DNA of 52,335 nt from Anaerolineales bacterium. Its GTDB lineage: Bacteria; Chloroflexota; Anaerolineae; Anaerolineales; E44-bin32. Numbering within the stretch: the first letter of the stretch is position 1; each line of letters starts with the position of its first letter. The translations under genes and the position numbers were made by a program. Below, piece by piece: positions 1 to 28,221 of this stretch. Location of the stretch: positions 1-52,335 of the forward strand of contig SOJU01000252.1 in assembly GCA_004376465.1 (NCBI GenBank). The letters are read 5' to 3'. A model generated the notes under the pieces. That model did not search any database. It had not been told where the DNA came from and saw only the letters and a list, made by a program, of their open reading frames with translations.

Positions 1-1836
1 GTGGGTGACCGGGTTGCTTGCGCGGGCGGCGGTTATGCAGTGCATGCCGAATATGCCGTTGTTCCCCAGAATCTGATCACAAAACTCCCCTCGGGCGTGG
101 ACTTTGAATCGGGCGCCTTCGCCACACTAGGAGCCATCGCCCTTCACGGGTTCAGGCTGGGAGAACCTCAATTAGGTGATCGTGTAGCGATAATCGGTCT
201 CGGGTTATTAGGGCTTTTAGCTGCAAAAATCGCTCAAGCGGCGGGTTGCGCTGTTTTTGGCATCGACACAGATCCCGAGCGGGTGAAAATAGCCGAAGAA
301 CTGGGCATTGAAGCTGTAAACAGAGATGCTGCCGAAACCGAAGGACCGGCGTTCACGGGCGGGGCAGGATTTGACCTGATACAAATTTGCGCCGACACGA
401 CTTCGCATGACACCGTCCAGCTCGCCGGTGTTCTGGCTAGAGATCGGGGAATTGTGGTGGCAACCGGCGCAGTTGGAACCGAGCTGCCGCGAAAACCCTA
501 TTATATGAAGGAGCTACGCTTTGTTATTTCGCGCTCCTATGGCCCTGGTCGCTATGACCCTCTCTACGAAGAGGCCGGCGTGGACTACCCACGCGGGTAT
601 GTGCGTTGGACCGAAGGCCGCAACTTAGAAGCGTTTTTAGAACTCCTCGAAGAAAGCAAAATTGAAACCCAACGGCTGCTCACACACCGCTTCCCTATTG
701 AGCGCGCCATCGAAGCTTACGATTTAATTTCGGACAGTAAGGGAGAGCCGGTTCTCGGAGTCCTGCTGACCTACCCCCAAGAGCAGGCCGAGGTCGTGTC
801 AACGCAGCGTAAGGTGGAATTCAGAGAGCCGGCAATTGAGGCGCAGGATAGCGTTCGCTTGGGCGCAATCGGCGCGGGAAACTTCGCCACCGCCACCATG
901 TTCCCAGCAATGAAAGGTGTGGACGGATTAGAATGGGTCGGGTTGGCGACGGCAACCGGGATGAAAGCAGCGCACGTTGGAAAACGTTTTGGGTTTGCTT
1001 ACGCCACGACGGATGTGGAAGAATTACTGAATGATCAGCGCATCAACACAATCGCCATCCTCACCCGGCACCATCTTCACGCCTCACAAGTAGCGGCCGC
1101 ACTTGAAGCTGATAAGCATGTGTTCTGCGAAAAACCACTCGCGCTCACGAGCAAGGAACTGGAACGGATTGCAGCTGCGTTGCAAACGAAGGACAAGCTG
1201 CTAAGCGTCGGGTTCAATCGCCGATTTGCCCCATTAGCCCTCAAGATGAAGAACTTCTTGGATAAAGCCCGCGAACCACTGGTGATGCACTACCGGGTAA
1301 ACGCCGGGCCTCTACCCTTGGATCATTGGCTTCATGATCCTGCCATGGGTGGAGGGCGTCTTATCGGTGAGGCCTGTCACTTTATCGACTTCTTGACGTT
1401 CCTGACGAATTCCCTCCCGGTGCGAGTGTTCACGCTGGGCCTTCCTGATGACGGAAGATATCGTGAAGATAACTTCGTCATTACGCTCGAGTTCGCGGAT
1501 GGTTCTGTCGGCAGTGTGAGCTACCTGGCGAACGGTGACCGGACACTCCCTAAAGAGCGAATCGAGGTCTTTGGAGGCGGGAGGGTAGCGGTTCTGGATG
1601 ACTTCCAGCAATTGGAGCTGACCCTATCCGGACGCACGAAGACCCACAAATCCCAACTTCGTCAGGATAAAGGTCATCGTGCTGAATGGCATGCCTTCCA
1701 GCAGACGATCACGCAAGGCGGTTCTCCGCCAATCCCCTATGAGCAGATCTTCGCGGTCTCGCTTGCTTCATTTACTGCACTCGATTCGTTGCGTTCCGGT
1801 GAACCACGAGATGTGGGACGGATTGCAGAGCAGTAA
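1..1836 (+). CDS. Bi-domain oxidoreductase (MDR/Zn-alcohol-dehydrogenase-like N-half fused to a Gfo/Idh/MocA C-half); 5' end lies outside the window
   Basis: The ORF is open to the window edge. It has a Rossmann motif AIIGLGLLGLLAAKIA in the N-half. A second NAD(P) fold (LGAIGAGNFA ... VFCEKPLAL) typical of Gfo/Idh/MocA sits in the C-half. This fusion is common in polysaccharide loci. Confidence 0.8.
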   Translation: MGDRVACAGGGYAVHAEYAVVPQNLITKLPSGVDFESGAFATLGAIALHGFRLGEPQLGDRVAIIGLGLLGLLAAKIAQAAGCAVFGIDTDPERVKIAEELGIEAVNRDAAETEGPAFTGGAGFDLIQICADTTSHDTVQLAGVLARDRGIVVATGAVGTELPRKPYYMKELRFVISRSYGPGRYDPLYEEAGVDYPRGYVRWTEGRNLEAFLELLEESKIETQRLLTHRFPIERAIEAYDLISDSKGEPVLGVLLTYPQEQAEVVSTQRKVEFREPAIEAQDSVRLGAIGAGNFATATMFPAMKGVDGLEWVGLATATGMKAAHVGKRFGFAYATTDVEELLNDQRINTIAILTRHHLHASQVAAALEADKHVFCEKPLALTSKELERIAAALQTKDKLLSVGFNRRFAPLALKMKNFLDKAREPLVMHYRVNAGPLPLDHWLHDPAMGGGRLIGEACHFIDFLTFLTNSLPVRVFTLGLPDDGRYREDNFVITLEFADGSVGSVSYLANGDRTLPKERIEVFGGGRVAVLDDFQQLELTLSGRTKTHKSQLRQDKGHRAEWHAFQQTITQGGSPPIPYEQIFAVSLASFTALDSLRSGEPRDVGRIAEQ

Positions 1837-1843
1837 AACATCC

Positions 1844-4039
1844 ATGCATTTCAAGCCGTTCTATGCGCTACGCGAACTTGGTCTGGTACCGCTGGCGCGC
1901 TACGCTGTGTATCAATTCGTGCAGCGAAGCGGCTGGCTTCGTTGGCGTACACCCACCTTCGCCTGGGAGGAGAGGCCGCTTGAGATGTGGCTGCGAAGTC
2001 ACGTCCCCTCAGATCCTGAAGGATATGCCCGGTACAGCGAGACGCGCACACAACCATTCTTCTTTCAAGATGTAGGGCGCCTAGGTGTTTCTCTGAAAGC
2101 CATTCTGGGTGAAGACGTTGGGGCGCCGGTGGAAGAAGCCGACTCGGCCCTCGACGGACGATATCGTCTGTTTGGGCAGCCCGAGATCGCGCTTGGTAAT
2201 CCGCCGAATTGGGGCGCCTTCGCATTAACCCCATCCGGAAGCGAGAAGACGACGGTTGGTCTTGAGCGCCACTGGACCGCGTACGACCTGAATGAACTTC
2301 CTCAAGACGTCAAACTCATCTGGGAAAATTCCCGCTTTGGCTGGGCGTATTCATTGGCTCGAGCCTATGCGCTGACGGGAGACGAGCATTACGTCGATGG
2401 TTTCTTTGCCCTGCTGCATTCCTGGCGCGAGGCAAATGCCCCAAACAAAGGCTTGAACTGGCACTCGGGTCAGGAGATCGCCATCCGTTTGCTCGCGCTG
2501 GTGTTTTCGTTTTACGCCTTCAATCAGGCACTCCGGGAGCGAGGCGATGATCTGGCGGAACTAGCAATGATGATTGCCATACACGCGGATCGCATCCCGG
2601 TGACGCTTCTCTATGCCCGTGCACAGGATAACAACCACCTGCTTGTCGAAGCGCTCGCGCTTTATACGACTGGTGTGCTTTTCCAGGAATTCAAAGATTC
2701 CGCAAAATGGAAACGCCTTGGACGGCAATTTATTGTGCAGGCGCTCGAGGGGCAGGTGTTTCTTGACGGAGGGTATATCCAGCAATCGATGAATTATCAC
2801 CGGCTTGCTCTGCAAGCGGGGACCTGGGCTGTGCGTCTGGCTGAGCTTGAGGGCGACCCCTTGCCCGAGACATCCGTAGATGCTGTGCGCAGAATGACGC
2901 TTTGGCTTGCTGCGGTTGTGGATCCGGTGACGGGAAATGCTCCCAATTGGGGACCCAACGACGGTGCAACCCTGCTCCCTCTGAGCGTTTGTCCGTTCGG
3001 AGATTTTCGGCCCACGTTGCAAGCCGCGGCATTGACGGCGCTGGGTGATCCAATATTCCCTCCGGGTAAGTGGGATGAACTGGCTCTCTGGCTTGGGGTG
3101 GAGGTCGCTAGAGACGACACTTCGATGGATGATGCAGGGCAGCGCAGAGAGAGCCATCATCGGCACGAGGCTGCTGGAGATCAGGTGGGTGTGCGCCCTG
3201 GTGATTTCCGTCAATCAGGGATCTATTTAATGAGCGGCCAGAAATCCCGGGGGATATTGCGCGCGGCACAATTCCACAGCCGCCCCGGGCATAGTGACCA
3301 GCTCCACTTCGATTTGTGGTGGGAAGGGATTAACCTGGCACGCGATCCAGGGACGTATCTTTATAACGCCGATCACCCCTGGAATAATGCATTTATGGGC
3401 GCCTGGTGTCACAACACAGCCCTGATCGATGGGTGTGATCCGATGCTGCGGGCGGGTCGATTCCTTTGGCTGAGATGGAGTAATGCCAAACTCCTTGGGC
3501 GTTGGCGCTCAAAAGACGGAGGCCTGGAAATCCTTTCAGCGATGCATCAATACCGGAGTCGCGAGCATACGGTCCACCAACGGACGATTTTGCGCGTTGA
3601 AGATCGATTGTGGATGGTGATTGATGATATTCTGGGGGTCGGGGAGGCAGGAGTTAGGATTGGCTGGAATCTCCCGGATGCCCCCTTTGATATGGATGAG
3701 CGCACGCTTTCCGTGTATTTACAGGGGTCAAGGGTGAGTATTCGAGCGGAGGGGATACAGGATAGAACCGCGCTATACAGAGCAGGCGAATTAATGGCTG
3801 GGGAAGAGTTTGTGCCGGATTCGAGACCTTACGGCTGGTATTCTCCGACTTATGCGCTGAAGCAGCCGGCGCTGCTCTGGTTGAGAAGCGCCCATGCTCA
3901 ATTGCCAATGCGGGGGGTTACCAAATGGGTGTTTGATAAGACGGTCATGGAGGACATCGACATCGGCTGGCTGGATCCAGAGATGGGGCGGCCGGCGCTT
4001 TCCCGTGTTGAATATCGTGGGATGAGAGCGGAAACGTAG
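1844..4039 (+). CDS. Heparinase II/III-like (alginate-lyase-fold) family protein
   Basis: I trimmed the 786-aa ORF to the ATG at 1844, 8 nt after the upstream stop; the ATG at 1811 is an alternative. The C-terminal GHSDQLHFDLWWEG matches the G-H-x-D-x-L-s-F signature of the heparinase II/III C-terminal domain. The central region is alpha-helical. Confidence 0.7.
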   Translation: MHFKPFYALRELGLVPLARYAVYQFVQRSGWLRWRTPTFAWEERPLEMWLRSHVPSDPEGYARYSETRTQPFFFQDVGRLGVSLKAILGEDVGAPVEEADSALDGRYRLFGQPEIALGNPPNWGAFALTPSGSEKTTVGLERHWTAYDLNELPQDVKLIWENSRFGWAYSLARAYALTGDEHYVDGFFALLHSWREANAPNKGLNWHSGQEIAIRLLALVFSFYAFNQALRERGDDLAELAMMIAIHADRIPVTLLYARAQDNNHLLVEALALYTTGVLFQEFKDSAKWKRLGRQFIVQALEGQVFLDGGYIQQSMNYHRLALQAGTWAVRLAELEGDPLPETSVDAVRRMTLWLAAVVDPVTGNAPNWGPNDGATLLPLSVCPFGDFRPTLQAAALTALGDPIFPPGKWDELALWLGVEVARDDTSMDDAGQRRESHHRHEAAGDQVGVRPGDFRQSGIYLMSGQKSRGILRAAQFHSRPGHSDQLHFDLWWEGINLARDPGTYLYNADHPWNNAFMGAWCHNTALIDGCDPMLRAGRFLWLRWSNAKLLGRWRSKDGGLEILSAMHQYRSREHTVHQRTILRVEDRLWMVIDDILGVGEAGVRIGWNLPDAPFDMDERTLSVYLQGSRVSIRAEGIQDRTALYRAGELMAGEEFVPDSRPYGWYSPTYALKQPALLWLRSAHAQLPMRGVTKWVFDKTVMEDIDIGWLDPEMGRPALSRVEYRGMRAET

Positions 4040-4040
4040 C

Positions 4041-5318
4041 GTGCACATCCTATTAATCCATCAGGCCTTTGCCGCAATTAACGAGCCGGGCGGAACCCGT
4101 CATCATGAGTTCGCCCGCCAGCTTGTGCGCCGCGGCCACCGCGTGACCATCATCGCCAGCCAGGTGAGCTACCTAACGGGTCGAACTGTGGCTAATGGGG
4201 GCTGGCTTGCGCGTGAGGTGGACGATGTCGGTGTGGAGATCCTTCGCTGCCGGAGTTATTCCGGATGGCATCGCTCCTTTCTGCACCGTATGCTGAGTTT
4301 CCTCAGTTTCATGGCGGTCTCATTCTGGACAGGATTGCGCGTGGCGGATGTCGATCTGGTGTGGGGAACGACCCCGCCGATTTTCCAGGCTGTGACTGCC
4401 CGATGGATTGCGGGGCTTAAGCGTAAGCCTTTTCTGCTTGAAGTCCGCGATCTCTGGCCTTCCTTCGCTGTTGCCGTCGGCGTGTTGAAAGACCCGTTCC
4501 TAATTCGTCTCTCGGAGTGGCTGGAGCGGAAGCTCTATCGTCGTGCGGATCGAGTTGTCGTCAATTCTCCGGGGTTTATCGAGCACGTGCGTTCACGGGG
4601 CGCTCAGCAGGTGGAAGTGGTCCCGAACGGGGTTGATCTGGCCATGTTTGAACGAAAAGCGAAAGATCAAACCTCGAGGCGCGAATTAGGTTTACCGATT
4701 GGATTTCTCGTCATCTATGCGGGAGCTCATGGGATGTCGAACGACCTGGAAACGGCGCTGAAAGCCGCTGAGCTTCTGCAGAACGAAGACGACATCCATT
4801 TTGTATTCCTCGGGGATGGTAAAGAGAAGGCCAATCTGATGGCGCTTGTGGAGCGTATGAAACTGCGCAACCTTCACTTCCTGCCGTCAATACCCAAAGA
4901 CAAAATTGCTTCGACGCTTATTCAGGCGGATGCAGGGCTGGCGATTCTTCTTGCGGTAGATGCGTATAAGACGACGTATCCCAATAAAGTGTTCGACTAT
5001 ATGGCCGCTGGCCTTCCCGTCGTCCTGGCCATTGATGGGGTTATCCGCCGGGTGGTTGAGGAGGCTGAGGCAGGGCTGTTCGCGCAGCCTGGAGACCCCG
5101 AGGCTATCGCCGAAGCAGTGAGGCGGCTTGCGGCGGACCCCGCCCTCGCAGACAAACTGGGACAGGCCGGCAGGCGCTGCGTCGAAGGTGATTTCGATCG
5201 CCAGCAGCTCGCCGCGAAGATGGCAGGTATCATGGAAAAGATAGTCGCAAACGGGAACGGACGCTCCTCAGATGGTGCGGCCGCGGACATCGCGTCAGGA
5301 GGGGTAAATGACGGCTAA
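4041..5318 (+). CDS. Glycosyltransferase family 4 (WbuB-like)
   Basis: The GTG start lies 1 nt after the upstream stop. The N-terminal INEPGGTRHHEFA and the C-terminal GDGKEK ... PNKVFDYMAAGLPVV (EX7E-type Rossmann) are typical of GT4/GT-B enzymes. Confidence 0.85.
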   Translation: MHILLIHQAFAAINEPGGTRHHEFARQLVRRGHRVTIIASQVSYLTGRTVANGGWLAREVDDVGVEILRCRSYSGWHRSFLHRMLSFLSFMAVSFWTGLRVADVDLVWGTTPPIFQAVTARWIAGLKRKPFLLEVRDLWPSFAVAVGVLKDPFLIRLSEWLERKLYRRADRVVVNSPGFIEHVRSRGAQQVEVVPNGVDLAMFERKAKDQTSRRELGLPIGFLVIYAGAHGMSNDLETALKAAELLQNEDDIHFVFLGDGKEKANLMALVERMKLRNLHFLPSIPKDKIASTLIQADAGLAILLAVDAYKTTYPNKVFDYMAAGLPVVLAIDGVIRRVVEEAEAGLFAQPGDPEAIAEAVRRLAADPALADKLGQAGRRCVEGDFDRQQLAAKMAGIMEKIVANGNGRSSDGAAADIASGGVNDG

Positions 5319-5946
5319 ACTCCTTCCCCCTGGCGTTCCGCTGAGCAAGCGATTATTTGATTTGACGCTGACACTTCCTGGTCTCGTTCTAATCAGCCCC
5401 CTATTGGGGCTCATTGGGGTGCTTGTGCGCATTTTTCTGGGATCCCCGGTGCTTTTTCGTCAGATGCGGCCAGGCAAGAGCGGCGAGCCCTTCAATGTTT
5501 ATAAATTCCGCACGATGACCGATGAGCGGGGTACTGGAGAACAATTGCTATCCGACGCAGAACGGATGACGGGCCTGGGTAGATTTCTGCGCAGCCTCAG
5601 CCTAGATGAACTCCCCGAGCTGTTCAACGTGCTGCGTGGTGAAATGAGTCTGGTTGGTCCGCGGCCGCTGCTGATGCAGTATCTCGAGCGATACTCATTG
5701 GAGCAAGCACGCCGCCACGAGGTTCTCCCGGGAATAAGCGGGTGGGCACAGGTCAACGGCCGTAACGCAATCACCTGGGAGGATAAGTTCCGCTATGATG
5801 TCTGGTATGTCGATAATTGGTCCCTGTGGCTGGATATTAAAATTATACTGACCACAGGCTGGAAGGTGGTCACGCGTGAGGGGATAAGCCAAATCGGGCA
5901 CACAACGGCCGAGGAGTTCATGGGCAGCGATAAACAGGACCTATAG
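5308..5946 (+). CDS. Small monotopic phosphoglycosyl transferase (bacterial sugar transferase, PglC/WbaP-C-terminal type)
   Basis: It has a single N-terminal hydrophobic helix. Motifs PGKSGEPFNVYKFRTM and DELPELFNVLRGEMSLVGPRP are present. It overlaps the GT4 gene by 11 nt. Confidence 0.9.
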   Translation: MTAKLLPPGVPLSKRLFDLTLTLPGLVLISPLLGLIGVLVRIFLGSPVLFRQMRPGKSGEPFNVYKFRTMTDERGTGEQLLSDAERMTGLGRFLRSLSLDELPELFNVLRGEMSLVGPRPLLMQYLERYSLEQARRHEVLPGISGWAQVNGRNAITWEDKFRYDVWYVDNWSLWLDIKIILTTGWKVVTREGISQIGHTTAEEFMGSDKQDL

Positions 5947-6065: not shown

Positions 6066-6251
6066 ATGAAGGAATCTTTGGAATTCTACGATGTGAAGTC
6101 GAAGGCGAAGTTCTCGGCAACAGAATGGCGGATTGAAACCAAAGTCTCAGACGATGGTAGGACCCGCTACTTTGCAGTGACGAAGGCCCCGGCCGGCACG
6201 CACGAAGCCTGGCGAATCGTGGGCAAAGACTTCGCCCTTAAAAATATGTAA
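6066..6251 (+). CDS. Small (61 aa) basic beta-rich hypothetical protein
   Basis: A strong SD (GAGGAGGA) lies 5 nt upstream of the ATG, and a hairpin follows the stop. The sequence is FYDVKSKAKF...KVSDDGRTRY...GTHEAWRIVGK. There are no cysteines. Confidence 0.55.
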   Translation: MKESLEFYDVKSKAKFSATEWRIETKVSDDGRTRYFAVTKAPAGTHEAWRIVGKDFALKNM

Positions 6252-6280
6252 GATTTTTGTTCCTGAATATGGGGTTAGGT

Positions 6281-6309
6281 AGCTCTGCTGGCGTATTGCA
6301 GCAGAGCTT
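6281..6309 (+). terminator. Hairpin downstream of the small ORF (possible intrinsic terminator)
   Basis: AGCTCTGCTG-(9 nt)-CAGCAGAGCT forms a perfect 10-bp stem. The downstream T-tract is weak. Confidence 0.45.
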
Positions 6310-6438
6310 GCTTACTCCGTATTTCGAAATGGAGTCGCGAGCCGCCTTTACATAGGGCGGCTCGTGTTTCGTCTGCAGGCAGTGGTATCATTGCGGCGAA
6401 ATACTGGTACTTTTAGTTGCCGGAGGTCCGAGCGCACG

Positions 6439-7362
6439 ATGAGCCGTCCAGATAATGCCGCGTTCTATCGTCGAATGCTGCGAATACGACGTTTTGAAGA
6501 AACCGTACTCGACCTCTTCCCGCGCGGGTTGTTCTACGGCACCACGCATACATATATAGGACAAGAGGCGAATGCGGTTGGAGTGCTCGCCTGGTTGCGC
6601 GAGGGCGATATCGTGGTCAGCAACCATCGCTGTCATGGGCATTTTCTTGCTTATGGCGGTTCGATGCGCTCGTTAGCAGCGGAACTCATGGGGCGCAGCA
6701 CAGGGGTTTGCGGCGGGCGTGGTGGGAGTCAGCACATACAATGGCGGGATTTCTATGCAAATGGGATCCTGGGTGGCACGGTTCCCATGGCGGCAGGGAT
6801 GGCTTCCACGGAAAAACTCAAAGAGGGAGACAAGATGGTTTTCTCCTTCATGGGGGATGGAACGCTGGGTGAAGGTGTCGTTTATGAGACCCTGAATATT
6901 GCCGCACTCGGGGCGTTCCCAATTCTCTTCATTGTTGAAAACAACCGCTATGCTCAAAGCACACCCACTCGATTGAACCTGGCGGGCGAGATCCCCGATC
7001 GCTTCAAGGCTTTCGGTATTCCGGTTGAATCGATTGATTCGACGGATGTGGTTGAGATCCACGAAGCCATTGAGCCCATGCTTAAGTATGTACGTGAGAA
7101 GAATGGCCCTGCGGCATTTGTGGTGCACACGTACCGTTTTGCACCTCACTCCAAAGGCGACGATAGTCGAGATCCAGAGGAGATCGCCCGTTATCGGACA
7201 AAAGACCCACTTCCAATTCAGGCCGAACGATTGGAAGAAGCGAACCAAAGAGAGATTCAGGAATCGGTTGAGATGGAGGTCGCGGACGCCTTCGAACAAG
7301 CCGAATCCGATCCCGCTGCCGAGCCTGCATCACTCACATCTCCGTTGGGAAAAAGCCAATGA
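6439..7362 (+). CDS. Thiamine-diphosphate-dependent 2-oxoacid dehydrogenase E1 component, alpha subunit
   Basis: I trimmed the start to the ATG at 6439, with GGAGG about 11 nt upstream. The ThDP motif GDGTLGEGVVYETLNIAALGAFPILFIVENNRYA (GDG-X-NN) is present. YRFAPHSKGDD corresponds to the YR-x-GHS-x-SD loop. Confidence 0.85.
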   Translation: MSRPDNAAFYRRMLRIRRFEETVLDLFPRGLFYGTTHTYIGQEANAVGVLAWLREGDIVVSNHRCHGHFLAYGGSMRSLAAELMGRSTGVCGGRGGSQHIQWRDFYANGILGGTVPMAAGMASTEKLKEGDKMVFSFMGDGTLGEGVVYETLNIAALGAFPILFIVENNRYAQSTPTRLNLAGEIPDRFKAFGIPVESIDSTDVVEIHEAIEPMLKYVREKNGPAAFVVHTYRFAPHSKGDDSRDPEEIARYRTKDPLPIQAERLEEANQREIQESVEMEVADAFEQAESDPAAEPASLTSPLGKSQ

Positions 7363-8363
7363 CGACCATCCTCGAATCGCTCAATCGGGGCTTGCGAACA
7401 TGCCTGGAGGAATCAGATCGGGTCTATGTGATCGGGGAGGACGTGCTCGATCCGTATGGTGGTGCGTTCAAGGTGACCAGGGGGTTATCCACGGATTACC
7501 CTGAACACGTGATCACCACACCCGTGTCGGAGGCCGGCATCGTTGGTGTTGGGGTTGGTATGGCGCTGCGCGGCCTGTTTCCAGTGATCGAGATCATGTT
7601 CGGCGATTTCATCAGTTTAACGGTTGACCAATTGATTAATCACGCCGCAAAATTCCGGTGGATGAGCAATGACCAGGTGCGGGTGCCACTCGTCGTGCGT
7701 ACGCCTATGGGCGGGCGGCGCGGGTACGGACCAACGCACAGCCAGTCCCTCGAGAAGCACTTGCTCGGCGCACCTGGCTTACGTGTCGTTGCGGCGACAG
7801 CGCTGGGCGATGCGGGAGAATTGCTGCGCAAGGCGGTCTTAGAGGATGAAGACCCTGTATTGTTCCTTGAGCACAAAGTTCTCTATGCAAAACCGATCAT
7901 CGCCCATGATGAACTGTCAGATTTCGAAGTCGATGTAAGCGATGATCCCTATCCAACCTACCGTCTGCGCATTGCCGGTGCCCCGACGCCAGTGATTACG
8001 CTGACAGCCTATGGATATTCAGCAGAACTGGCGCGTGAAGCCGTGAAGCGTCTGGCTTACGAGCATGAGATCTTCAGCGATCTCATCGTCCCTACACATT
8101 TATCCCCCTTTGAACTGAGTGACCTATTCAGTGCGGTGAGACAAACGAAGCGCCTGCTGACCGTTGAGGAGGGTACGATGACGCTTGGTTGGGGTGCGGA
8201 AGTCATCGCCCGAGCCCTCGAAGAACTTGGCGCCGGGCTCCATGCGCAGCGTGTCGCCGCAGGCGACATGCCGATACCCGCTGCCGGGCTGCTGGAAACA
8301 GCCGTACTCCCGCAGGTTGAGGACATTATTGAGGCGGCAGTTGCACTTTCTGAAGCGAACTGA
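7359..8363 (+). CDS. 2-oxoacid dehydrogenase E1 component, beta subunit (transketolase-like Pyr and C-terminal domains)
   Basis: An ATGA overlap joins it to the alpha-subunit gene. Motifs GEDVLDPYGGAFKVTRGL, TPVSEAGIVGVGVGMA and RTPMGGRRGYGPTHSQS are typical of E1 beta. Confidence 0.9.
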   Translation: MTTILESLNRGLRTCLEESDRVYVIGEDVLDPYGGAFKVTRGLSTDYPEHVITTPVSEAGIVGVGVGMALRGLFPVIEIMFGDFISLTVDQLINHAAKFRWMSNDQVRVPLVVRTPMGGRRGYGPTHSQSLEKHLLGAPGLRVVAATALGDAGELLRKAVLEDEDPVLFLEHKVLYAKPIIAHDELSDFEVDVSDDPYPTYRLRIAGAPTPVITLTAYGYSAELAREAVKRLAYEHEIFSDLIVPTHLSPFELSDLFSAVRQTKRLLTVEEGTMTLGWGAEVIARALEELGAGLHAQRVAAGDMPIPAAGLLETAVLPQVEDIIEAAVALSEAN

Positions 8364-8510
8364 AGCATTAATTCAGCAGAGGCTTCTCTATTGGTAAGCG
8401 AGGGATTTCTCGATTAGACTCATTCATGGTTAGCGTTCATAATCTCATGGCTCGATTTTTATTGACGATCGCTCTTTGCCCAACTGTAATCTCACAGAAT
8501 TAGGAGAAGT

Positions 8511-9626
8511 ATGCCCGATCCTATTGAGGTCCTCGTACCGCTCTTGAACCCTAACGAACCTGAAGTTCAGGTGGCCAGGGTAAATGTTATTGAGGGGCAA
8601 AAGGTACAGGAGGGCGATCCGCTTTGCACGCTTGAGAGCACGAAGTCGGTCACAGAAGTGACCGCAGTTCGCGCGGGCTTTATCGTTGGCCTTGAATTTG
8701 CGGAAAGTGATCTACTAAGAGCGGGCGACAGATTGTGCTGGTTGGCGGATGATTCGAAATGGACGCCGCCCGAGATGAAGCCTTCACCGGCAGACGTCGA
8801 TGAAGGCGCGATACCCGACGGATTACGGATCACGAAACCCGGTTTACGCCTGGCGCGTGATCACGGGTTAGATCCTACTCGTTTGCCGAGAGAGACGCTG
8901 ATAACAGAATCTGTAGTGCGCCGGATACTGGCGCTGGAAGGCGGCGGAGAGATGGAATTACCAGAAGCGGATTTTAATGCTGGCGCGATCGTCGTTTACG
9001 GAGGCGGTGGTCATGGAAAATCGGTCATCGACCTGATCCGTGCTCTCGGCCAGTATCAAGTTGTGGGTGTGATTGACGACGGACTTAAGCGGGGGACCGA
9101 TGTAATGGGGGTTCCCGTAATCGGTGGAGGAGATCAACTCCCCCGGCTGGCAAAAGATGGAGTGAGGCTTGCCGTAAACGCTGTTGGTGGAATAGGGGAC
9201 ATCACCAGCCGGATCCAGATATTTCAAAGGTTGCTGGAAGCAGGGTTCGGCTTTCCGACCCTCATCCACCCCACCGCTTTTATCGAACCTACGGTGCAGC
9301 TTGGCCAGGGCGTGCAGGTCTTCCCGCATGCTTACATAGGAAGTGACACCGACGTTGGGTTTGGCACCATCATTAATACGGCAGCCATCGTTTCGCATGA
9401 TTGCCGCCTGGGAGCCTATGTCAACGTCGCTCCTGGAGCGCTGTTGGCGGGAGCGGTAACACTCGATGAAGGTGTGCTGATCGGGATGGGTGTGACGCTA
9501 AACCTGAATGTAACCGTCGGGTCAAAGGCACGCATCGGCAACAGCGCGGTCATAAAAGAGGATGTCCCCTCTGGAAAGATGATCCGGGCGGGGGATATCT
9601 GGCCTCAAGACTCAGAAGAATCATGA
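8511..9626 (+). CDS. Chimeric protein: lipoyl/biotinyl-attachment-like domain + peripheral-subunit (E3/E1)-binding domain + NeuD/PglD-family left-handed-beta-helix sugar acyltransferase
   Basis: Residues 1-80 look like a lipoyl barrel, with GDPLCTLESTKSVTEV (Lys45, codon 8643-8645) in the place of E-T-D-K-A. Residues 104-140 (LRITKPGLRLARDHGLDPTRL) match PSBD. Residues 158-371 match NeuD/PglD (IVVYGGGGHGKSVIDL, hexapeptide repeats, SHDCRLG catalytic His). Confidence 0.85.
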   Translation: MPDPIEVLVPLLNPNEPEVQVARVNVIEGQKVQEGDPLCTLESTKSVTEVTAVRAGFIVGLEFAESDLLRAGDRLCWLADDSKWTPPEMKPSPADVDEGAIPDGLRITKPGLRLARDHGLDPTRLPRETLITESVVRRILALEGGGEMELPEADFNAGAIVVYGGGGHGKSVIDLIRALGQYQVVGVIDDGLKRGTDVMGVPVIGGGDQLPRLAKDGVRLAVNAVGGIGDITSRIQIFQRLLEAGFGFPTLIHPTAFIEPTVQLGQGVQVFPHAYIGSDTDVGFGTIINTAAIVSHDCRLGAYVNVAPGALLAGAVTLDEGVLIGMGVTLNLNVTVGSKARIGNSAVIKEDVPSGKMIRAGDIWPQDSEES

Positions 9627-24247: not shown

Positions 24248-24622
24248 ATGAATCAAATGCTTACGACCTGCCCGGTCTGTGAGGAACGCCTCTCGATTAC
24301 ACGCTTTCACTGTCGCAACTGCGACACCACGATCGATGGACATTTCGATATTGGCCGCTTCGGGAGATTGAGTGCTGAGCAGATTAACTTTCTTGAAGTC
24401 TTCGTACGCTGCGAGGGAAAGCTAAGTCGAATGGAACCCGAATTGGAGTTGTCGTATCCTACACTCAGGGCACGGTTGACAGAGATCATTCGTTCGTTGG
24501 GCTTCCCGGTAGGACCTGAGACGAAACTGATTAATGATGAGGAGCGGCACAAGATCCTCGACGACCTGGCAAGCGGGAAATTGACTTCTGAGGAGGCCAT
24601 GCAGCTTCTGGAAGTTGACTGA
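24248..24622 (+). CDS. DUF2089-type regulator: N-terminal Zn-ribbon + HTH + C-terminal SHOCT-like bihelix
   Basis: The Zn-ribbon is CPVCEERL...CRNCDTTI. The HTH region is LSAEQINFLEVFVRCEGKLSRMEPELELSYPTLRARL. The C-terminus is ERHKILDDLASGKLTSEEAMQLL. Confidence 0.85.
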   Translation: MNQMLTTCPVCEERLSITRFHCRNCDTTIDGHFDIGRFGRLSAEQINFLEVFVRCEGKLSRMEPELELSYPTLRARLTEIIRSLGFPVGPETKLINDEERHKILDDLASGKLTSEEAMQLLEVD

Positions 24623-24663
24623 ATAGTTGAGGTAGACCTGGTAAGCGGGAGGAGGTTGGCACT

Positions 24664-25779
24664 GTGGAAAAAGTGACACTTGAGATTGGCGAAAGCCCTC
24701 TGGTGAAAATCACGACAATCGGCGGGGATCTGCGTCTTTCGGGGCGGGATGAGCCCATCCTAGAGGCACAGGCGCCGGATAAGGGGAAGCTGCAAGTAGA
24801 TGAGATCGAAGAGGGAGTAGAAATCACTGCGAACTCAGGCTGCATCCTTTTCTTACCGAAAGACGCGCGTCTCGAGGTCGGCGAGGTTGGTGGGGACTGT
24901 AGGGTCACCGATTTGGGAAACGAGTTCATGATTCGTACGATTGGAGGAGATTTGAGCTTACGCAGGGTTGGGGCGGCGACCTTTGAAACGATCGGCGGGG
25001 ATTTTCAGAGCAGGCATATTGAGGGGAATTTAACCGTCGACCGTATTGGCGGGGACGCCGTGATTCACAAAGTCAAGGGTGATATCCATCTGCGAGGAGT
25101 GGGGGGGGACCTGATGCTTAACGATAGCTCTGGCCAGGTGAACGCATTTGTTGGCGGAGATGCTTTAGTCACTCTGGCGACCCCTGAAGGCTCTCACTCA
25201 AAAGTGCAGGCTGGCAGCGACCTTTCCTGCCGGATAGCTCCTGAGTCATCGGTGAACGTGTCCTTATCCGCAGGTGGCGATCTGGATTATCCATTAGTAG
25301 TGGAGTCCAAAGAGCAGGGTGAAGGTGTCGCTTTTCAGCTTGGTGACGGCGAAGCGGAACTAGAGCTTACAGCTGGTGGAGATCTCTGCCTTCAAACGGG
25401 ATTGAGGCAGGATGATTACGAAGACGATTGGGTCGGAGAGATACTAACCGAGGTAGACGCGAAGCTGGCAGAAGTGGAGGCGCGCTTCAATGTTATGGGC
25501 ACGGGGATGTACGGCTTCGATGCAGATCGAATTGGTGAGCGCGTCCGCCGTGCGGTTCGACGTGCAGAGCGCAGGGCAAGCGGAAAGGCAAAACGCAAAG
25601 CGGCGAAGGAAAAGAGGAAGACGGGCTCGTCTTTCTCATGGAAAGCGCCTGGATTCGGTGACGCCGTAGAACCTGCGACCGATGAGGAACGTTTAACGAT
25701 CCTGCGCATGGTTGAAGAAGGCAAGGTTTCGGTCTCAGAAGCCGAAGCTTTACTCAAGGTCCTGGAGGGAGAATCTTGA
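24664..25779 (+). CDS. DUF4097 'toastrack' beta-helix repeat protein (LiaX/YvlB-like) with basic linker and C-terminal SHOCT-like bihelix
   Basis: The GTG start has GGGAGGAGG 8 nt upstream. About 11 repeats of the x-GGD-x type (TIGGDLRLSG, VGGDCRV, TIGGDLSL, RIGGDAVI, VGGDLML, AGGDLDY...) are present. A K/R-rich stretch spans residues 292-320. The C-terminus is ERLTILRMVEEGKVSVSEAEALLKVL. Confidence 0.85.
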   Translation: MEKVTLEIGESPLVKITTIGGDLRLSGRDEPILEAQAPDKGKLQVDEIEEGVEITANSGCILFLPKDARLEVGEVGGDCRVTDLGNEFMIRTIGGDLSLRRVGAATFETIGGDFQSRHIEGNLTVDRIGGDAVIHKVKGDIHLRGVGGDLMLNDSSGQVNAFVGGDALVTLATPEGSHSKVQAGSDLSCRIAPESSVNVSLSAGGDLDYPLVVESKEQGEGVAFQLGDGEAELELTAGGDLCLQTGLRQDDYEDDWVGEILTEVDAKLAEVEARFNVMGTGMYGFDADRIGERVRRAVRRAERRASGKAKRKAAKEKRKTGSSFSWKAPGFGDAVEPATDEERLTILRMVEEGKVSVSEAEALLKVLEGES

Positions 25780-26759
25780 CCGCTGCCGTCGCCTCGGCCA
25801 AACCGTTTGCACACTGTGGCATCCGACCCGTAGAACCGCGCCACGATATGGCCGCACTAGCCGGGTTGATCGAACAAGCATTTTCAGAGCGATTAGATGC
25901 CTCCGGGCGGCGGATGATCTTGGGTATGAAGATGTTTGCACGGGCGGGGAGCCTCGGCTGGTTTTTGGGCCGTTGGTTTTTACCCCCAGCTGCCTACCCT
26001 CAGGGATATGTTTGGGAAGAGGATGGCGAGGTGGTAGGTAATGCAAGCCTGCTTCCCGTGAGTGGATACCAGCAACGCTGGGTAATGGCTAACGTCGTGG
26101 TCAAGCCGGAATATCAGCGCCAGGGCATTGCGCGGGAACTGATCCTGGCTTCGATCGAGCATGCACGACGCAGTGGGGGCAAGCGGATCATATTGCAGGT
26201 TGATCGTGATAATCAGGGAGCAAGGACTCTGTATGAGAACCTCAAGTTTAAGACTCTCTCAACGCGAACTACGTGGTTAAGAAAAGAGAACGGAGAATGG
26301 CCGCACGCTGATACTCAGGATCAGGTTCGACCTCGGACAAGCGGCGAATGGCGCGGGCATTGGGCGTTGGCAAAACGGCTGCACCCTGAAGGGTTATTAT
26401 GGCCTTTCCCTGCAGTTGCGAGCCTGTTTCGACCATCAGGATTTGAGAATCTGTTCGGATTGGGGAAACCCAAGCACTGGGTATGGCAAGAAGCCGGGAG
26501 ACTCGCCGGTGCGGTAAGCATCAGGTCTGAGTTAGAGCGCCGTCTATTGCGCTTGATGATGGTTGTGGAACCTGAATGGCGCGAAGATATCGAAAGCGGT
26601 CTTCTTTGTGAAGCGATGCAGGAATCGGCGGCGTTAGCTGACAACTTCATCCTGGATTATCCGTCTGACGTCGCCCGGGAAAAAATTGAAAGACTGGGCT
26701 TTAAGGCCATTCGCGAGCTCACATGGATGGGAATGAACCTCGAGGAAAACGAAACTTGA
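25776..26759 (+). CDS. GNAT-family N-acetyltransferase, two-lobed (GNAT + second degenerate GNAT-like half)
   Basis: The TTG start overlaps the upstream TGA (CTTGA), with GGAGGGAG upstream. The first half has motif A (VVVKPEYQRQGIARELILASIEHARRSG) and then TLYENLKFK. The second 150 aa ends in ERLGFKAIRE, which is typical of a GNAT beta-strand/helix terminus. Confidence 0.85.
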   Translation: MTAAVASAKPFAHCGIRPVEPRHDMAALAGLIEQAFSERLDASGRRMILGMKMFARAGSLGWFLGRWFLPPAAYPQGYVWEEDGEVVGNASLLPVSGYQQRWVMANVVVKPEYQRQGIARELILASIEHARRSGGKRIILQVDRDNQGARTLYENLKFKTLSTRTTWLRKENGEWPHADTQDQVRPRTSGEWRGHWALAKRLHPEGLLWPFPAVASLFRPSGFENLFGLGKPKHWVWQEAGRLAGAVSIRSELERRLLRLMMVVEPEWREDIESGLLCEAMQESAALADNFILDYPSDVAREKIERLGFKAIRELTWMGMNLEENET

Positions 26760-26792
26760 AGGATCCATGAGCTTTAATGGTGGAGATTCGCA

Positions 26793-27344
26793 ATGAATGA
26801 CGATCAAAACAGTATGGAGATACTCGATCAGCTTGATGCTGGTCAGATTGATGCCAGTGAAGCCGTCCGCCGGCTTTCAGAGAAGGGCGTACAACCCAAG
26901 CAGCAGGCTGAAGTTCCCAGCCTTCCCAACCGCTGGCGATATTGGTGGACGATCCCACTCTCCATTGGGTTCGCAATGTGTGTTACGGGGTGGGGCCTGA
27001 GCCAGCTAGGTGGCTGGTGGTGGATCTGCGCAGGACCTTTACTGGTGCTTGGAGCCGTCGTTATGATCTTGTCCGCAGCCACGTATAAGTCTCCCTGGGT
27101 CCATGTACGAGTAAAAACTGGAGAAGATAAATGGCCACGCACGATTGCGATCAGCTTGCCGCTTCCTCTTGGTCTCACCGCACGCATTCTAAGATGGCGA
27201 GGTTTGTCCTTTGGCGGGTTAGACGCAACCACGATCGACGATCTGATACTTGCGCTCCAAGCAAATCTGTCAGCCGGCGAACCGATTTATATTGAAGTTG
27301 ATGAGGGTGAGTCGGGAGAACAAGTAAAAATTATCTTGGGTTAG
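26793..27344 (+). CDS. Membrane protein: N-terminal SHOCT-like bihelix, two TM helices, C-terminal domain paralogous to the next ORF
   Basis: The SD is GGTGGAG. The N-terminus is MEILDQLDAGQIDASEAVRRLSEKG. The TM segments are WWTIPLSIGFAMCVTGWGL and WWWICAGPLLVLGAVVMILSAA. The C-terminus runs WVHVRVK...IAISLPLPLGL...IYIEVDEGESGEQVKIIL. Confidence 0.75.
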   Translation: MNDDQNSMEILDQLDAGQIDASEAVRRLSEKGVQPKQQAEVPSLPNRWRYWWTIPLSIGFAMCVTGWGLSQLGGWWWICAGPLLVLGAVVMILSAATYKSPWVHVRVKTGEDKWPRTIAISLPLPLGLTARILRWRGLSFGGLDATTIDDLILALQANLSAGEPIYIEVDEGESGEQVKIILG

Positions 27345-27361
27345 ACAAGGAGACATATGAG

Positions 27362-27733
27362 ATGTCATCAAAAGAGCGATTAAAAATTCTAAAGATGATC
27401 GACGAAGGAAAGATTACGGCAGAAGAAGGCACGCAATTACTTGGGGCCTTAAAGAAACAGGAGAAGCACAGGAGCGGTTCCACTGAAGGTGGAGCGCAGT
27501 GGTTGCGAATTCGAGTCAGTGACCTGAACTCTGGGAAAGAAACAGTTCGGGTTAGCCTCCCGATAGGTCTGGTTAATATCGGTATGAAGATGGGGGCTCG
27601 CTTTGTCCCGGAAATTGAGGAAGAGGCCGTTATGGAGGATCTGGCCGAAGCGCTATCTCAGGGGATGGCTGGAAAAATCATCGATATCGTGGATGAAGAA
27701 GATGGTGAACGTGTCGAGATATTTATCGAGTAA
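27362..27733 (+). CDS. Soluble protein: N-terminal SHOCT-like bihelix (YvlB/LiaX N-terminal type) + domain paralogous to the C-terminus of the previous ORF
   Basis: The SD AAGGAGA lies 8 nt upstream. The N-terminus is ERLKILKMIDEGKITAEEGTQLLGAL. The C-terminus runs WLRIRVS...VRVSLPIGLVNIG...IIDIVDEEDGERVEIFI. Confidence 0.8.
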   Translation: MSSKERLKILKMIDEGKITAEEGTQLLGALKKQEKHRSGSTEGGAQWLRIRVSDLNSGKETVRVSLPIGLVNIGMKMGARFVPEIEEEAVMEDLAEALSQGMAGKIIDIVDEEDGERVEIFIE

Positions 27734-27834
27734 GCAACATCATCTCGACCCAACCTCCTTTGCCTTCGAGATGAATCCGAGCTCAGATCAGCGGGGGAAG
27801 GCAGTCATGGTAAGATTCCCATGAGAGGGTAGTA

Positions 27835-28221
27835 GTGAAAAACTTTGGATTGCGTCTGGCGATTAACGCCCTTGCACTTTACCTCGCTGTGGGCACCGGC
27901 TGGATCCCTTACATACACGCAGAGAACACACAGTGGTGGGCATATTTCGTCATGGCCTTGATCTTCGCAGTTGTCAACGCGGTGCTTGGGCCTCTGCTGA
28001 AGCTGTTGACCTGTCCGTTGATATTTCTTACGCTGGGATTATTCACGCTGGTCATCAACACATTGCTTTTCTACGTGACGGGATGGCTTGGAAGCTTAAT
28101 CGGCAGTGGCTTCGGCTTCGAAATCGAAAAAGTCTGGGCGGGTTTTCTGGGCGCGTTGCTGGTCGGGATCGTCAATACTGTCCTCACGCTGGTTTTCCGG
28201 AGGGAGCTCAAAACAGCGTAA
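27835..28221 (+). CDS. DUF360 / phage-holin-superfamily-IV-like small membrane protein (YvlD-like)
   Basis: It is 128 aa with four TM segments. The N-terminal LRLAINALALYLAV is typical of DUF360. It has a GTG start. Confidence 0.8.
   Translation: MKNFGLRLAINALALYLAVGTGWIPYIHAENTQWWAYFVMALIFAVVNAVLGPLLKLLTCPLIFLTLGLFTLVINTLLFYVTGWLGSLIGSGFGFEIEKVWAGFLGALLVGIVNTVLTLVFRRELKTA

Follow-up and report, generated by a model that had tools for sequence, protein, structure and literature searches.

General features of the locus

The stretch of DNA analysed here (the window) comprises positions 1–52,335 of contig SOJU01000252.1 from an Anaerolineales bacterium. It codes for a chimeric protein in which a lipoyl domain and a divergent peripheral-subunit-binding domain (PSBD), arranged as in the acyltransferase component (E2) of 2-oxoacid dehydrogenase complexes, are fused to a sugar N-acyltransferase of the NeuD/PglD type. 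The chimera gene is preceded by genes for both subunits of a thiamine diphosphate (ThDP)-dependent 2-oxoacid dehydrogenase (E1) and followed by a sugar aminotransferase gene. The main features of this region are the following.

5308–5946 (+): small polyprenyl-phosphate glycosyl-1-phosphate transferase of the PglC/EpsL type, 212 amino acids (Pfam Bac_transf, 1.2e-63)
6439–7362 (+): E1 alpha, subunit of a ThDP-dependent 2-oxoacid dehydrogenase, 307 amino acids (Pfam E1_dh, 2.1e-55)
7359–8363 (+): E1 beta, 334 amino acids (Transket_pyr, 4.5e-30; Transketolase_C, 7.7e-13)
8511–9626 (+): chimera, 371 amino acids, lipoyl domain, PSBD and NeuD/PglD-type N-acyltransferase
8511–8750 (+): lipoyl domain, chimera residues 1–80 (Biotin_lipoyl at residues 18–76, 1.9e-9; modelled beta-barrel)
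8823–8939 (+): divergent PSBD, chimera residues 105–143, recognized with family profiles against the PDB, with flanking linkers at residues 81–104 and 144–158
8985–9581 (+): NeuD/PglD-type N-acyltransferase, chimera residues 159–357, with a PglD_N nucleotide-sugar-binding domain and a left-handed beta-helix
9623–10855 (+): sugar aminotransferase of the DegT/PseC/PglE type (DegT_DnrJ_EryC1, 1.2e-111)

The gene coordinates of the first-pass annotation, and the two overlaps that it had reported, proved exact when the sequence was read again. The E1 alpha and E1 beta genes overlap by the tetranucleotide ATGA (gccaATGAcg, 7359–7362), read directly from the sequence, and the chimera gene is coupled in the same manner to that of the DegT aminotransferase (atcATGAaa, 9623–9626). 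Two public contigs carry an identical chimera protein, and their independent gene calls agree on the genes. The aminotransferase scores 298 bits with the PseC model and 280 bits with the LegC-family model, each below its cutoff. Its product is predicted to be the amine that is acylated; the resulting nucleotide sugar is probably used by the PglC/EpsL-type transferase. A Pfam scan found no second N-acyltransferase in the cassette. The 52-kb window encodes no dihydrolipoamide dehydrogenase (E3), no lipoate-attachment enzyme or lipoate ligase, no canonical E2 core and no 4,6-dehydratase.

Domain organization of the chimera

The N-terminal domain had been read as a lipoyl barrel with its swinging-arm lysine in the motif LESTK45S. 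The motif is found at that position (presumed lipoyl-lysine Lys45, codon 8643–8645) within the region matched by Biotin_lipoyl, and the AlphaFold model is a beta-barrel with a predicted local distance difference test (pLDDT) score of 80–93. Foldseek matches this barrel to the L2 lipoyl domain of human E2 (3crk_C, TM score 0.79). At the sequence level, the PDB matches of the barrel region are exclusively lipoyl domains of E2 and of the E3-binding protein (E3BP), with no biotin carboxyl carrier protein (BCCP) among them. The lysine context, E-T/S-T/S-K-S/A, is of the lipoyl type and differs from the M-K-M context of biotinyl domains. There is also a weak match (24 bits) of the chimera N-terminus to the NCBIfam model PRK14875 (AcoC). 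Of the 346 full-length family members, 345 have Lys45 and 343 have Glu42. Lys45 is thus exactly as conserved as His296, the catalytic base of the transferase domain (345/346 each), which indicates that both are under the same constraint; Lys45 presumably carries lipoate.

Residues 159–357 had been described as a NeuD/PglD-type transferase standing in place of the E2 core and retaining its catalytic histidine (SHDC), and the profile searches agree. Pfam identifies PglD_N (residues 160–241, 8.5e-14) and Hexapep (2.7e-12), and the NCBIfam model TIGR03570 (NeuD/PglB/VioB) matches residues 160–357 with 177 bits against a cutoff of 160.8. The catalytic core of 2-oxoacid dehydrogenase acyltransferases (PF00198, DHRxxDG) was not found in the chimera; because this core is missing and PglD_N and Hexapep are there instead, the protein is not a strict member of the E2 family. 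The sugar acetyltransferase PerB (4ea7) matches at 2e-33 with 35 per cent identity, and His296 (codon 9396–9398, motif S295-H296-D-C) aligns with the catalytic His141 of PerB, the residue mutated in 4eaa and 4eab, whose counterpart in PglD is His125. Foldseek matches of the C-terminal half are PerB, PglB-ATD, VioB and PglD; LpxA and LpxD also match this domain. Asn289 is kept in 342 of the 346 family members, and the PglD_N residues His168 and Asp189 in 321 and 323, respectively.

An invariant AGxxWP tail, replacing the usual GxPAK, was considered as an adaptation to a lipoyl donor and rejected, since unfused relatives have it as well. One of these is P0170, which has an FtsX gene upstream; the 0.9 kb by which the contig extends in this direction hold no E1 gene. 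Another close relative that appears unfused (P0142) is uninformative, because it lies 138 bp from a contig end. Two further proteins, P0152 (865 amino acids) and P0233 (638 amino acids), consist of four and three tandem complete PglD-like units, respectively, without a lipoyl arm. Each unit has an N-domain and a beta-helix and ends in GNPARP or GVPARP; these proteins may be covalently linked pseudo-oligomers of a normally trimeric enzyme.

The PSBD is the most divergent part of the arm, and here the first-pass assignment stands with respect to family profiles and fails with respect to Pfam. The segment GLRITKPGLRLARDHGLDPTRLPRETLITESVVRRIL, with its motif region at L105–L125, gives no match to the Pfam model E3_binding even at E <= 10 when chimera residues 85–160 are searched, and seven distant members of the family yield only two sub-threshold matches (0.013 and 0.044). 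When a profile of the segment from 29 relatives was compared with 177,635 PDB sequences, the best match was the PSBD of a Thermus E2 (2eq8_C, E = 0.0037). A family profile of 71 sequences matched the Pyrobaculum E2 PSBD 1w4i_A at 8.6e-6, and E2 PSBDs made up 13 of its 16 top matches. Since the family profiles put E2 PSBDs as the best PDB matches, residues 105–143 are best read from these alignments as a real PSBD, divergent and with a shorter loop: about three residues of the inter-helix loop are deleted relative to E2 PSBDs. AlphaFold predicts helices at residues 109–117 and 133–143, flanked by linkers with pLDDT below 50; the linker that follows the lipoyl barrel is disordered and rich in proline and glutamate, and the mean pLDDT of the whole chimera is 73. 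An hhalign comparison with approximate PSBD sequences gave a weak result (P = 1e-4, probability 58%), on which no weight is placed.

The second-best match of the PSBD profile is a separate observation. PDB entry 7qjm_A, a metagenomic 'alpha/beta-hydrolase (202)', has a clear PSBD at residues 39–75; it looks like an E2 surrogate of the AcoC type that was deposited merely as a hydrolase.

The E1 subunits

Complete genes for a ThDP-dependent E1 had been claimed, and the Pfam domains listed above (E1_dh, Transket_pyr and Transketolase_C) cover both subunits. The closest solved structure to E1 alpha is the human pyruvate dehydrogenase (PDH) E1 alpha (1e-46), followed by the branched-chain 2-oxoacid dehydrogenase (BCKDH) enzyme (1e-20) and the Geobacillus enzyme (1e-17); for E1 beta, the matches to PDH E1 beta structures reach about 1e-45. 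In E1 alpha the motif binding ThDP and magnesium is retained ('GDGTLGEG...ENNRY', human 'GDGAANQG...ENNRY'), and so is the histidine of reductive acylation ('APHS' aligned with human 'HGHS'). E1 beta retains its catalytic histidine ('THSQS' aligned with 'QHSQC') and the glutamate that activates ThDP ('PVSEAG' compared with 'PISEMG'). We take the two reductive-acylation histidines to correspond to human alpha-His263 and beta-His128. Judged by these residues, the E1 genes look fully functional.

Neither subunit reaches its NCBIfam equivalog cutoff for PDH (TIGR03182/PRK09212): alpha scores 257 bits against 394 and beta 199 against 321. The enzyme therefore appears to be PDH-like without being an orthologue of the housekeeping PDH E1. 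Nearness to the PDH type rather than the BCKDH type is clear for E1 alpha and less clear for E1 beta. As E1 alpha is nearest to PDH-type E1, pyruvate would be the default guess for the substrate.

Distribution and conservation of the module

A protein search for close relatives gave at least 120 full-length clusters, 54–93 per cent identical to the chimera and with the same domains throughout. The survey of phyletic spread suggested in the first-pass annotation was made by scanning one genome per species: 401 stretches encode a relative of the chimera. The best 80 of these 401 are all full length, and all come from metagenome-assembled genomes (MAGs) of Chloroflexota (Anaerolineae), except one contig. 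This exception (L005, JAIWHF010000009.1) is labelled as a Methanosarcinales archaeon; its cassette has 93–95 per cent protein identity to the Anaerolineales window, and the contig almost certainly got into an archaeal MAG through a binning error. A search for the fusion on plasmids gave 39 records, in all of which the match leaves out the N-terminal arm.

Neighbouring genes were counted in the best 80 stretches and two further loci, using for each count only the loci with enough flanking sequence. E1 beta lies immediately upstream of the chimera in 73 of 76 loci and E1 alpha upstream of the chimera in 61 of 66. In 47 of 58 loci the PglC-like transferase precedes the E1 genes, and in 55 of 73 the DegT aminotransferase follows the chimera. 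The same five-gene cassette occurs in an entirely different chromosomal neighbourhood (L002), and at one locus (L062) the triad E1 alpha–E1 beta–chimera stands alone between plsY and crcB.

The family is deeper than the Anaerolineae. An exhaustive search of 1.84 billion representatives (E <= 1e-30) returned 503 proteins; more than 100 of the best 150 are 345–390 amino acids long and align end to end with 29–49 per cent identity. Down to 29–35 per cent identity, the family extends into Bacteroidota, where the named relatives include Dokdonia, Polaribacter, Chitinophagaceae and Bacteroidales. The upstream gene could be read in four distant members (29–38% identity), which lie in unrelated neighbourhoods, and it is an E1 gene in all four. 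In a fifth (P0255, L088), the upstream gene is a 367-amino-acid open reading frame (ORF) cut by the contig end. The idea put forward in the first-pass annotation was to fall if the E1 genes did not accompany the chimera in other genomes; they accompany it in nearly all of the close loci and in the distant ones whose upstream gene could be read.

Four of the distant loci illustrate the contexts. L085 is a complete pathway of the legionaminic acid type, with genes in the order dehydratase, DegT, CBS-nucleotidyltransferase, E1 alpha, E1 beta, chimera, NeuB, 2-epimerase and CMP-transferase. The chimera occupies the slot of the N-acetyltransferase LegH, and there is no other N-acyltransferase in the pathway. 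P0206 lies in an O-antigen-like cluster with Wzy and glycosyltransferases, L086 is a cluster with NeuB and a CMP-transferase, and L087 adjoins a Bac_transf gene. In the Bacteroidota branch, P0283 (locus L089, found together with P0259) also has E1 directly upstream and lies at the end of a non-ribosomal peptide synthetase (NRPS) cluster. This cluster (L089:1–11113, contig ctg127083 of a 3.9-Mb Bacteroidota genome) codes for condensation, adenylation, peptidyl carrier protein and thioesterase domains, as well as a methyltransferase and a phosphopantetheinyl transferase, with no sugar genes nearby. The acceptor of the N-acyl group may here be a peptide or an amine instead of a sugar.

The two branches differ in the layout of E1. 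In the Anaerolineae there are two ATGA-coupled genes, whereas the Bacteroidota-type branch has a single E1 protein of 641–672 amino acids that combines alpha and beta and whose end overlaps the chimera start (P0206; L086:6062–8008; L089:7990–10008, 672 amino acids). In L085 (6999–8004), two ORFs of 127 and 201 amino acids together make up E1 beta, owing to a frameshift or assembly error or because the subunit is genuinely split. The E1 proteins of the distant loci are 40–47 per cent identical to that of the window, and human PDH is 34–35 per cent identical to it; since the distant E1s are the nearer ones, this comparison, of identities rather than of a phylogeny, suggests that E1 and the fusion have been inherited together. 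Co-inheritance of E1 and the fusion is tight and ancient, and the arrangement, conserved in hundreds of genomes, is far beyond chance.

The absence of E3 reported for the window extends to its relatives: tblastn with E. coli Lpd (identical to PDB 4jdr_A) gave no matches in the window and 89 loci (1.17 Mb). In public databases, the relatives of the chimera are annotated as 'acetyltransferase EpsM' or 'NeuD/PglB/VioB family sugar acetyltransferase'.

Proposed mechanism and alternative explanations

We propose that E1 and the chimera form a small PDH-like machine that decorates an amino sugar with an acyl group delivered from a 2-oxoacid by the lipoyl arm, and estimate the probability of this reading at roughly 0.6. 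E1, as an alpha2beta2 tetramer docked on the PSBD of the chimera, would decarboxylate the 2-oxoacid on ThDP and reductively transfer the acyl group onto lipoyl-Lys45. The acyl-dihydrolipoyl arm would then swing into the chimera's own beta-helix active site, situated at the subunit interface of a trimer (the C-terminal domain is expected, by analogy with PglD, to be trimeric). There, His296 would deprotonate the amine of a nucleotide-linked sugar, and acyl transfer would give the N-acyl sugar, an amide. The reduced arm would be re-oxidized by a housekeeping E3 encoded elsewhere, and the neighbouring PglC-like phosphoglycosyl transferase would start a glycan with the N-acyl sugar. Given the gene set, which resembles EpsL–EpsM–EpsN and PglC–PglD–PglE, the acceptor in the window is most likely a UDP-2-acetamido-4-amino-2,4,6-trideoxyhexose of the bacillosamine type. 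E1–PSBD docking, direct transfer from lipoyl to amine, and the identities of the acyl group and the sugar are the steps that we infer.

A weaker argument concerns the acyl group. The module is kept where acetyl-CoA surely exists and an ordinary LegH or PglD would suffice, so that the group might be other than acetyl (candidates are glycolyl, propionyl and malonyl) or the arm might bring an advantage in supply or regulation. One lead is Tannerella forsythia UB4, which has an N-glycolyl legionaminic acid; neither E1 nor lipoyl genes are mentioned in the paper that describes it.

Several points weigh against the proposed mechanism. It is drawn from sequence and gene context, and for a plain acetyl group it is hard to see what would be gained over the use of acetyl-CoA. 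The C-terminal domain is an ordinary member, above the TIGR03570 cutoff, of a family that uses acetyl-CoA, and no fusion-specific change was found in it relative to unfused relatives; CoA could therefore still take part. The PSBD has no Pfam match, and several residues that contact E1 and E3 in Geobacillus are not obviously conserved. There are three chimera loci with no E1 in the available upstream sequence (7 kb at L059, 2.4 kb at L076 and 1.2 kb at L034). Finally, the E3 and lipoylation genes lie outside the window and the 89 loci, and their presence elsewhere in these genomes is assumed.

The ordinary character of the transferase domain is also what speaks for a relay through CoA, which we consider unlikely. 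The E1-loaded arm would pass its acyl group to CoA held in the pantetheine tunnel of the beta-helix domain, and from there to the sugar amine. The domain would act as a non-homologous E2 and CoA would be recycled locally, free acyl-CoA being bypassed in space and not in chemistry. This would suit an unmodified acetyl-CoA-dependent NeuD/PglD member (177 bits on TIGR03570) that is 35 per cent identical to PerB, crystallized with CoA, and in which no loss of features relative to unfused relatives was detected. However, it demands two consecutive thioester transfers in one site, for which there is no known precedent in this fold, and gives no reason for the covalent fusion of arm and transferase, which direct delivery would conserve. 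Moreover, the pepteridine and naphthyridinomycin systems (see below) load a tethered thiol, not CoA.

The database annotations would be correct as they stand if the chimera were an ordinary acetyl-CoA-dependent PglD/EpsM enzyme, its lipoyl–PSBD arm a docking or regulatory appendage, and E1 had another job, such as the addition of a two-carbon branch to a keto-sugar, as in pathways of branched-sugar antibiotics. E1-like alpha/beta pairs without an E2 do form C–C bonds on sugars, for example in avilamycin, which counts in favour of this explanation. It is nevertheless improbable, as the lysine and its ETxK context are invariant across a family diverged to about 30 per cent identity, and E1 keeps histidines specific to the reductive acylation of lipoamide, which it would not be expected to keep for a chemically idle appendage.

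No more credible is a role in central metabolism, in which the beta-helix domain would only make acyl-CoA, in the manner of AcoC, and the sugar genes would be incidental. The triad standing alone among housekeeping genes (L062), three loci without sugar genes and the member in the NRPS cluster would fit such a non-homologous E2. On the other hand, the PglD_N nucleotide-sugar-binding domain and its residues His168 and Asp189 are conserved family-wide, an aminotransferase follows in 55 of 73 loci, and in L085 the chimera fills the LegH slot of a pathway with no other N-acyltransferase.

That the N-terminal domain is biotinylated, within a carboxylase or decarboxylase, is barely conceivable: Biotin_lipoyl spans both domain types and the Foldseek matches to BCCP are equal or better (TM score 0.9), but the lysine motif is not A/V-M-K-M, the PDB sequence matches are all E2/E3BP lipoyl domains, E1 precedes and a PSBD follows, and no carboxylase or carboxyltransferase gene was found in the loci examined.

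Returning to arm-fed acylation, a bolder version would combine CoA-free transfer from the acyl-dihydrolipoyl-lysine tethered in cis with a dedicated E1 that has evolved for a 2-oxoacid or ketol other than pyruvate. We regard this combination as possible yet rather doubtful. If it were correct, glycan tailoring would have its first lipoyl-dependent enzyme in the chimera, and a lipoyl arm would for the first time be seen to feed a beta-helix acyltransferase. Acyl groups such as glycolyl, propionyl, malonyl or hydroxyacyl could be installed on nitrogen without an acyl-CoA pool, which would explain unusual N-acyl decorations of bacillosamine- and legionaminic-acid-type sugars in Chloroflexota and Bacteroidota. 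As a portable 'acyl-from-ketoacid' cassette, the module would then have been put to new use even in an NRPS pathway.

Comparison with known systems

The chimera has the same order of lipoyl domain, linker, PSBD, linker and catalytic domain as the E2 of PDH and BCKDH complexes (e.g. the PDH of Geobacillus stearothermophilus), and its partner is likewise an E1 alpha/beta whose catalytic residues are the same. Trimers are the building blocks of E2 cores and also the form of PglD-type enzymes, so the catalytic module of the chimera is presumably trimeric too. In contrast to these E2 proteins, it has a beta-helix N-acyltransferase and a nucleotide-sugar-binding domain instead of the 2-oxoacid_dh core (DHRxxDG), which resembles chloramphenicol acetyltransferase; its predicted acceptor is a sugar amine, not CoA; and a 24-mer or 60-mer core is not expected. 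Furthermore, no E3 is encoded near the chimera, and its PSBD loop is about three residues shorter.

The C-terminal 200 residues are those of a bona fide member of the PglD, PerB, PglB-ATD, VioB, LegH and EpsM group, with the catalytic histidine and asparagine conserved. The gene context of PglD-, PerB-, LegH- and EpsM-type enzymes is shared as well, whether as an aminotransferase, a PglC-like transferase or the LegH slot. Characterized members of the NeuD family are free-standing or differently fused and use acetyl-CoA as the donor, whereas the chimera carries a lipoyl–PSBD arm of about 158 residues and is tied to E1.

There are precedents for changes at the catalytic end of E2. In AcoC, the E2 of acetoin dehydrogenase (PRK14875), a lipoyl (plus PSBD) arm is borne by a non-canonical catalytic domain that works with an E1 alpha/beta. 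The catalytic domain of AcoC has the alpha/beta-hydrolase fold. AcoC still makes acetyl-CoA, and its fold and acceptor differ from those of the chimera. Two natural-product systems join a dedicated E1 and a lipoyl arm in passing a ketose- or 2-oxoacid-derived acyl group to an acceptor other than free CoA, as is proposed for the chimera, with E3 outside the cluster. They retain an E2-like subunit of the canonical kind. The acceptor of their acyl group is a phosphopantetheinyl carrier protein, whereas the predicted product of the chimera is an N-acyl nucleotide sugar. The first is the pepteridine pathway of Photorhabdus, where a PDH-like E1 acts with an E2 fusion (plu2796, E2-T-C) and the acyl group comes from pyruvate or 2-oxobutyrate, not from acyl-CoA; the host E3 is thought to be borrowed, and the acyl group of the product follows the availability of the 2-oxoacid (PMC5384830). 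The second is the glycolicacyl unit of naphthyridinomycin and quinocarcin, delivered by E1 and a lipoyl arm according to the summary of Peng et al. (2012) given in PMC5384830.

LpxA and LpxD share the fold of the C-terminal domain. These left-handed beta-helix acyltransferases take their acyl groups from a protein-tethered thiol arm and not from free CoA. Their arm is the phosphopantetheine of a separate acyl carrier protein, with acyl groups from fatty acid synthesis, whereas that of the chimera would be a lipoyl-lysine in cis, fed by E1.

Because the catalytic end of E2 is already replaced or extended in the AcoC, pepteridine and naphthyridinomycin systems, the chimera is not categorically new. 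The parts and the chemistry are known; the combination is widespread, cleanly defined and experimentally tractable. The first-pass annotation knew of no biochemical description of it, and literature searches likewise found none of a lipoyl–PSBD arm fused to a NeuD/PglD acyltransferase, nor of E1 genes in amino-sugar or nonulosonic-acid pathways. One match with the word 'lipoyl' was dismissed, as the term there means lipid.

If arm-fed acylation is correct, central 2-oxoacid metabolism would be linked directly to the chemistry of cell-surface glycans through a swinging arm of a kind known so far only from glycine cleavage, the 2-oxoacid dehydrogenase and acetoin systems and a small number of natural-product pathways. 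The catalytic core of E2 could then be swapped for a wholly different acyltransferase fold with a different acceptor. The module would also suggest concretely how bacteria might make amino sugars and nonulosonic acids with non-standard N-acyl groups, the enzymology of which is described as scarce (PMC5378307). As a compact set of three proteins, it would serve as a tool by which nucleotide sugars could be given N-acyl groups of choice, with cheap 2-oxoacids as the starting material. The finding also corrects the labels of several hundred proteins that now go simply by 'NeuD/PglB/VioB family sugar acetyltransferase' or 'acetyltransferase EpsM'.

Other features of the window

Further features lie upstream of the E1 genes.

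1–1836 (+): oxidoreductase gene, cut by the window edge
(+): GT4 glycosyltransferase gene, part of a cell-surface-polysaccharide set with the oxidoreductase and a heparinase II/III-like protein
6066–6251 (+): ORF of 61 amino acids between the transferase and E1 alpha, with its own strong ribosome-binding site
6252–6438 (+): structured leader or terminator region before E1 alpha, with two long hairpins, the second (6336–6366) followed by a T-run

The 61-amino-acid ORF is found in 32 loci, always in the same position and with 55–98 per cent identity, and shows stronger conservation than its enzyme neighbours. It occurs only in Chloroflexota, where each of its 78 clusters is annotated 'hypothetical protein', and gave no matches in Pfam or the PDB. 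A single-sequence AlphaFold model is all-beta, with low confidence.

The leader that follows it (about 189 nucleotides) has a minimum free energy of -85.7 kcal/mol (z = -6.6 compared with shuffled sequences), and a terminator-like site is reported within it. The hairpins may be the terminator of the 61-amino-acid gene or an attenuator ahead of the E1 operon. An Rfam scan of the leader and of the gap before the chimera found no family at threshold and only a sub-threshold chance match to a microRNA hairpin.

Upstream of the cassette (1–4039 (+) in the window; 1155–5529 in L083) there is a 723-amino-acid protein that joins a zinc-type alcohol dehydrogenase (ADH_N/ADH_zinc_N) to a Gfo/Idh/MocA oxidoreductase; the heparinase II/III-like protein comes next. 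Many Anaerolineae loci that have the cassette have these two genes as well. Further downstream, at 24248–28221 (+), there is a run of small genes unrelated to the chimera, with DUF2089 (zinc ribbon and helix-turn-helix) and repeated SHOCT-like domains; the run also holds a GNAT acetyltransferase and a protein of holin superfamily IV.

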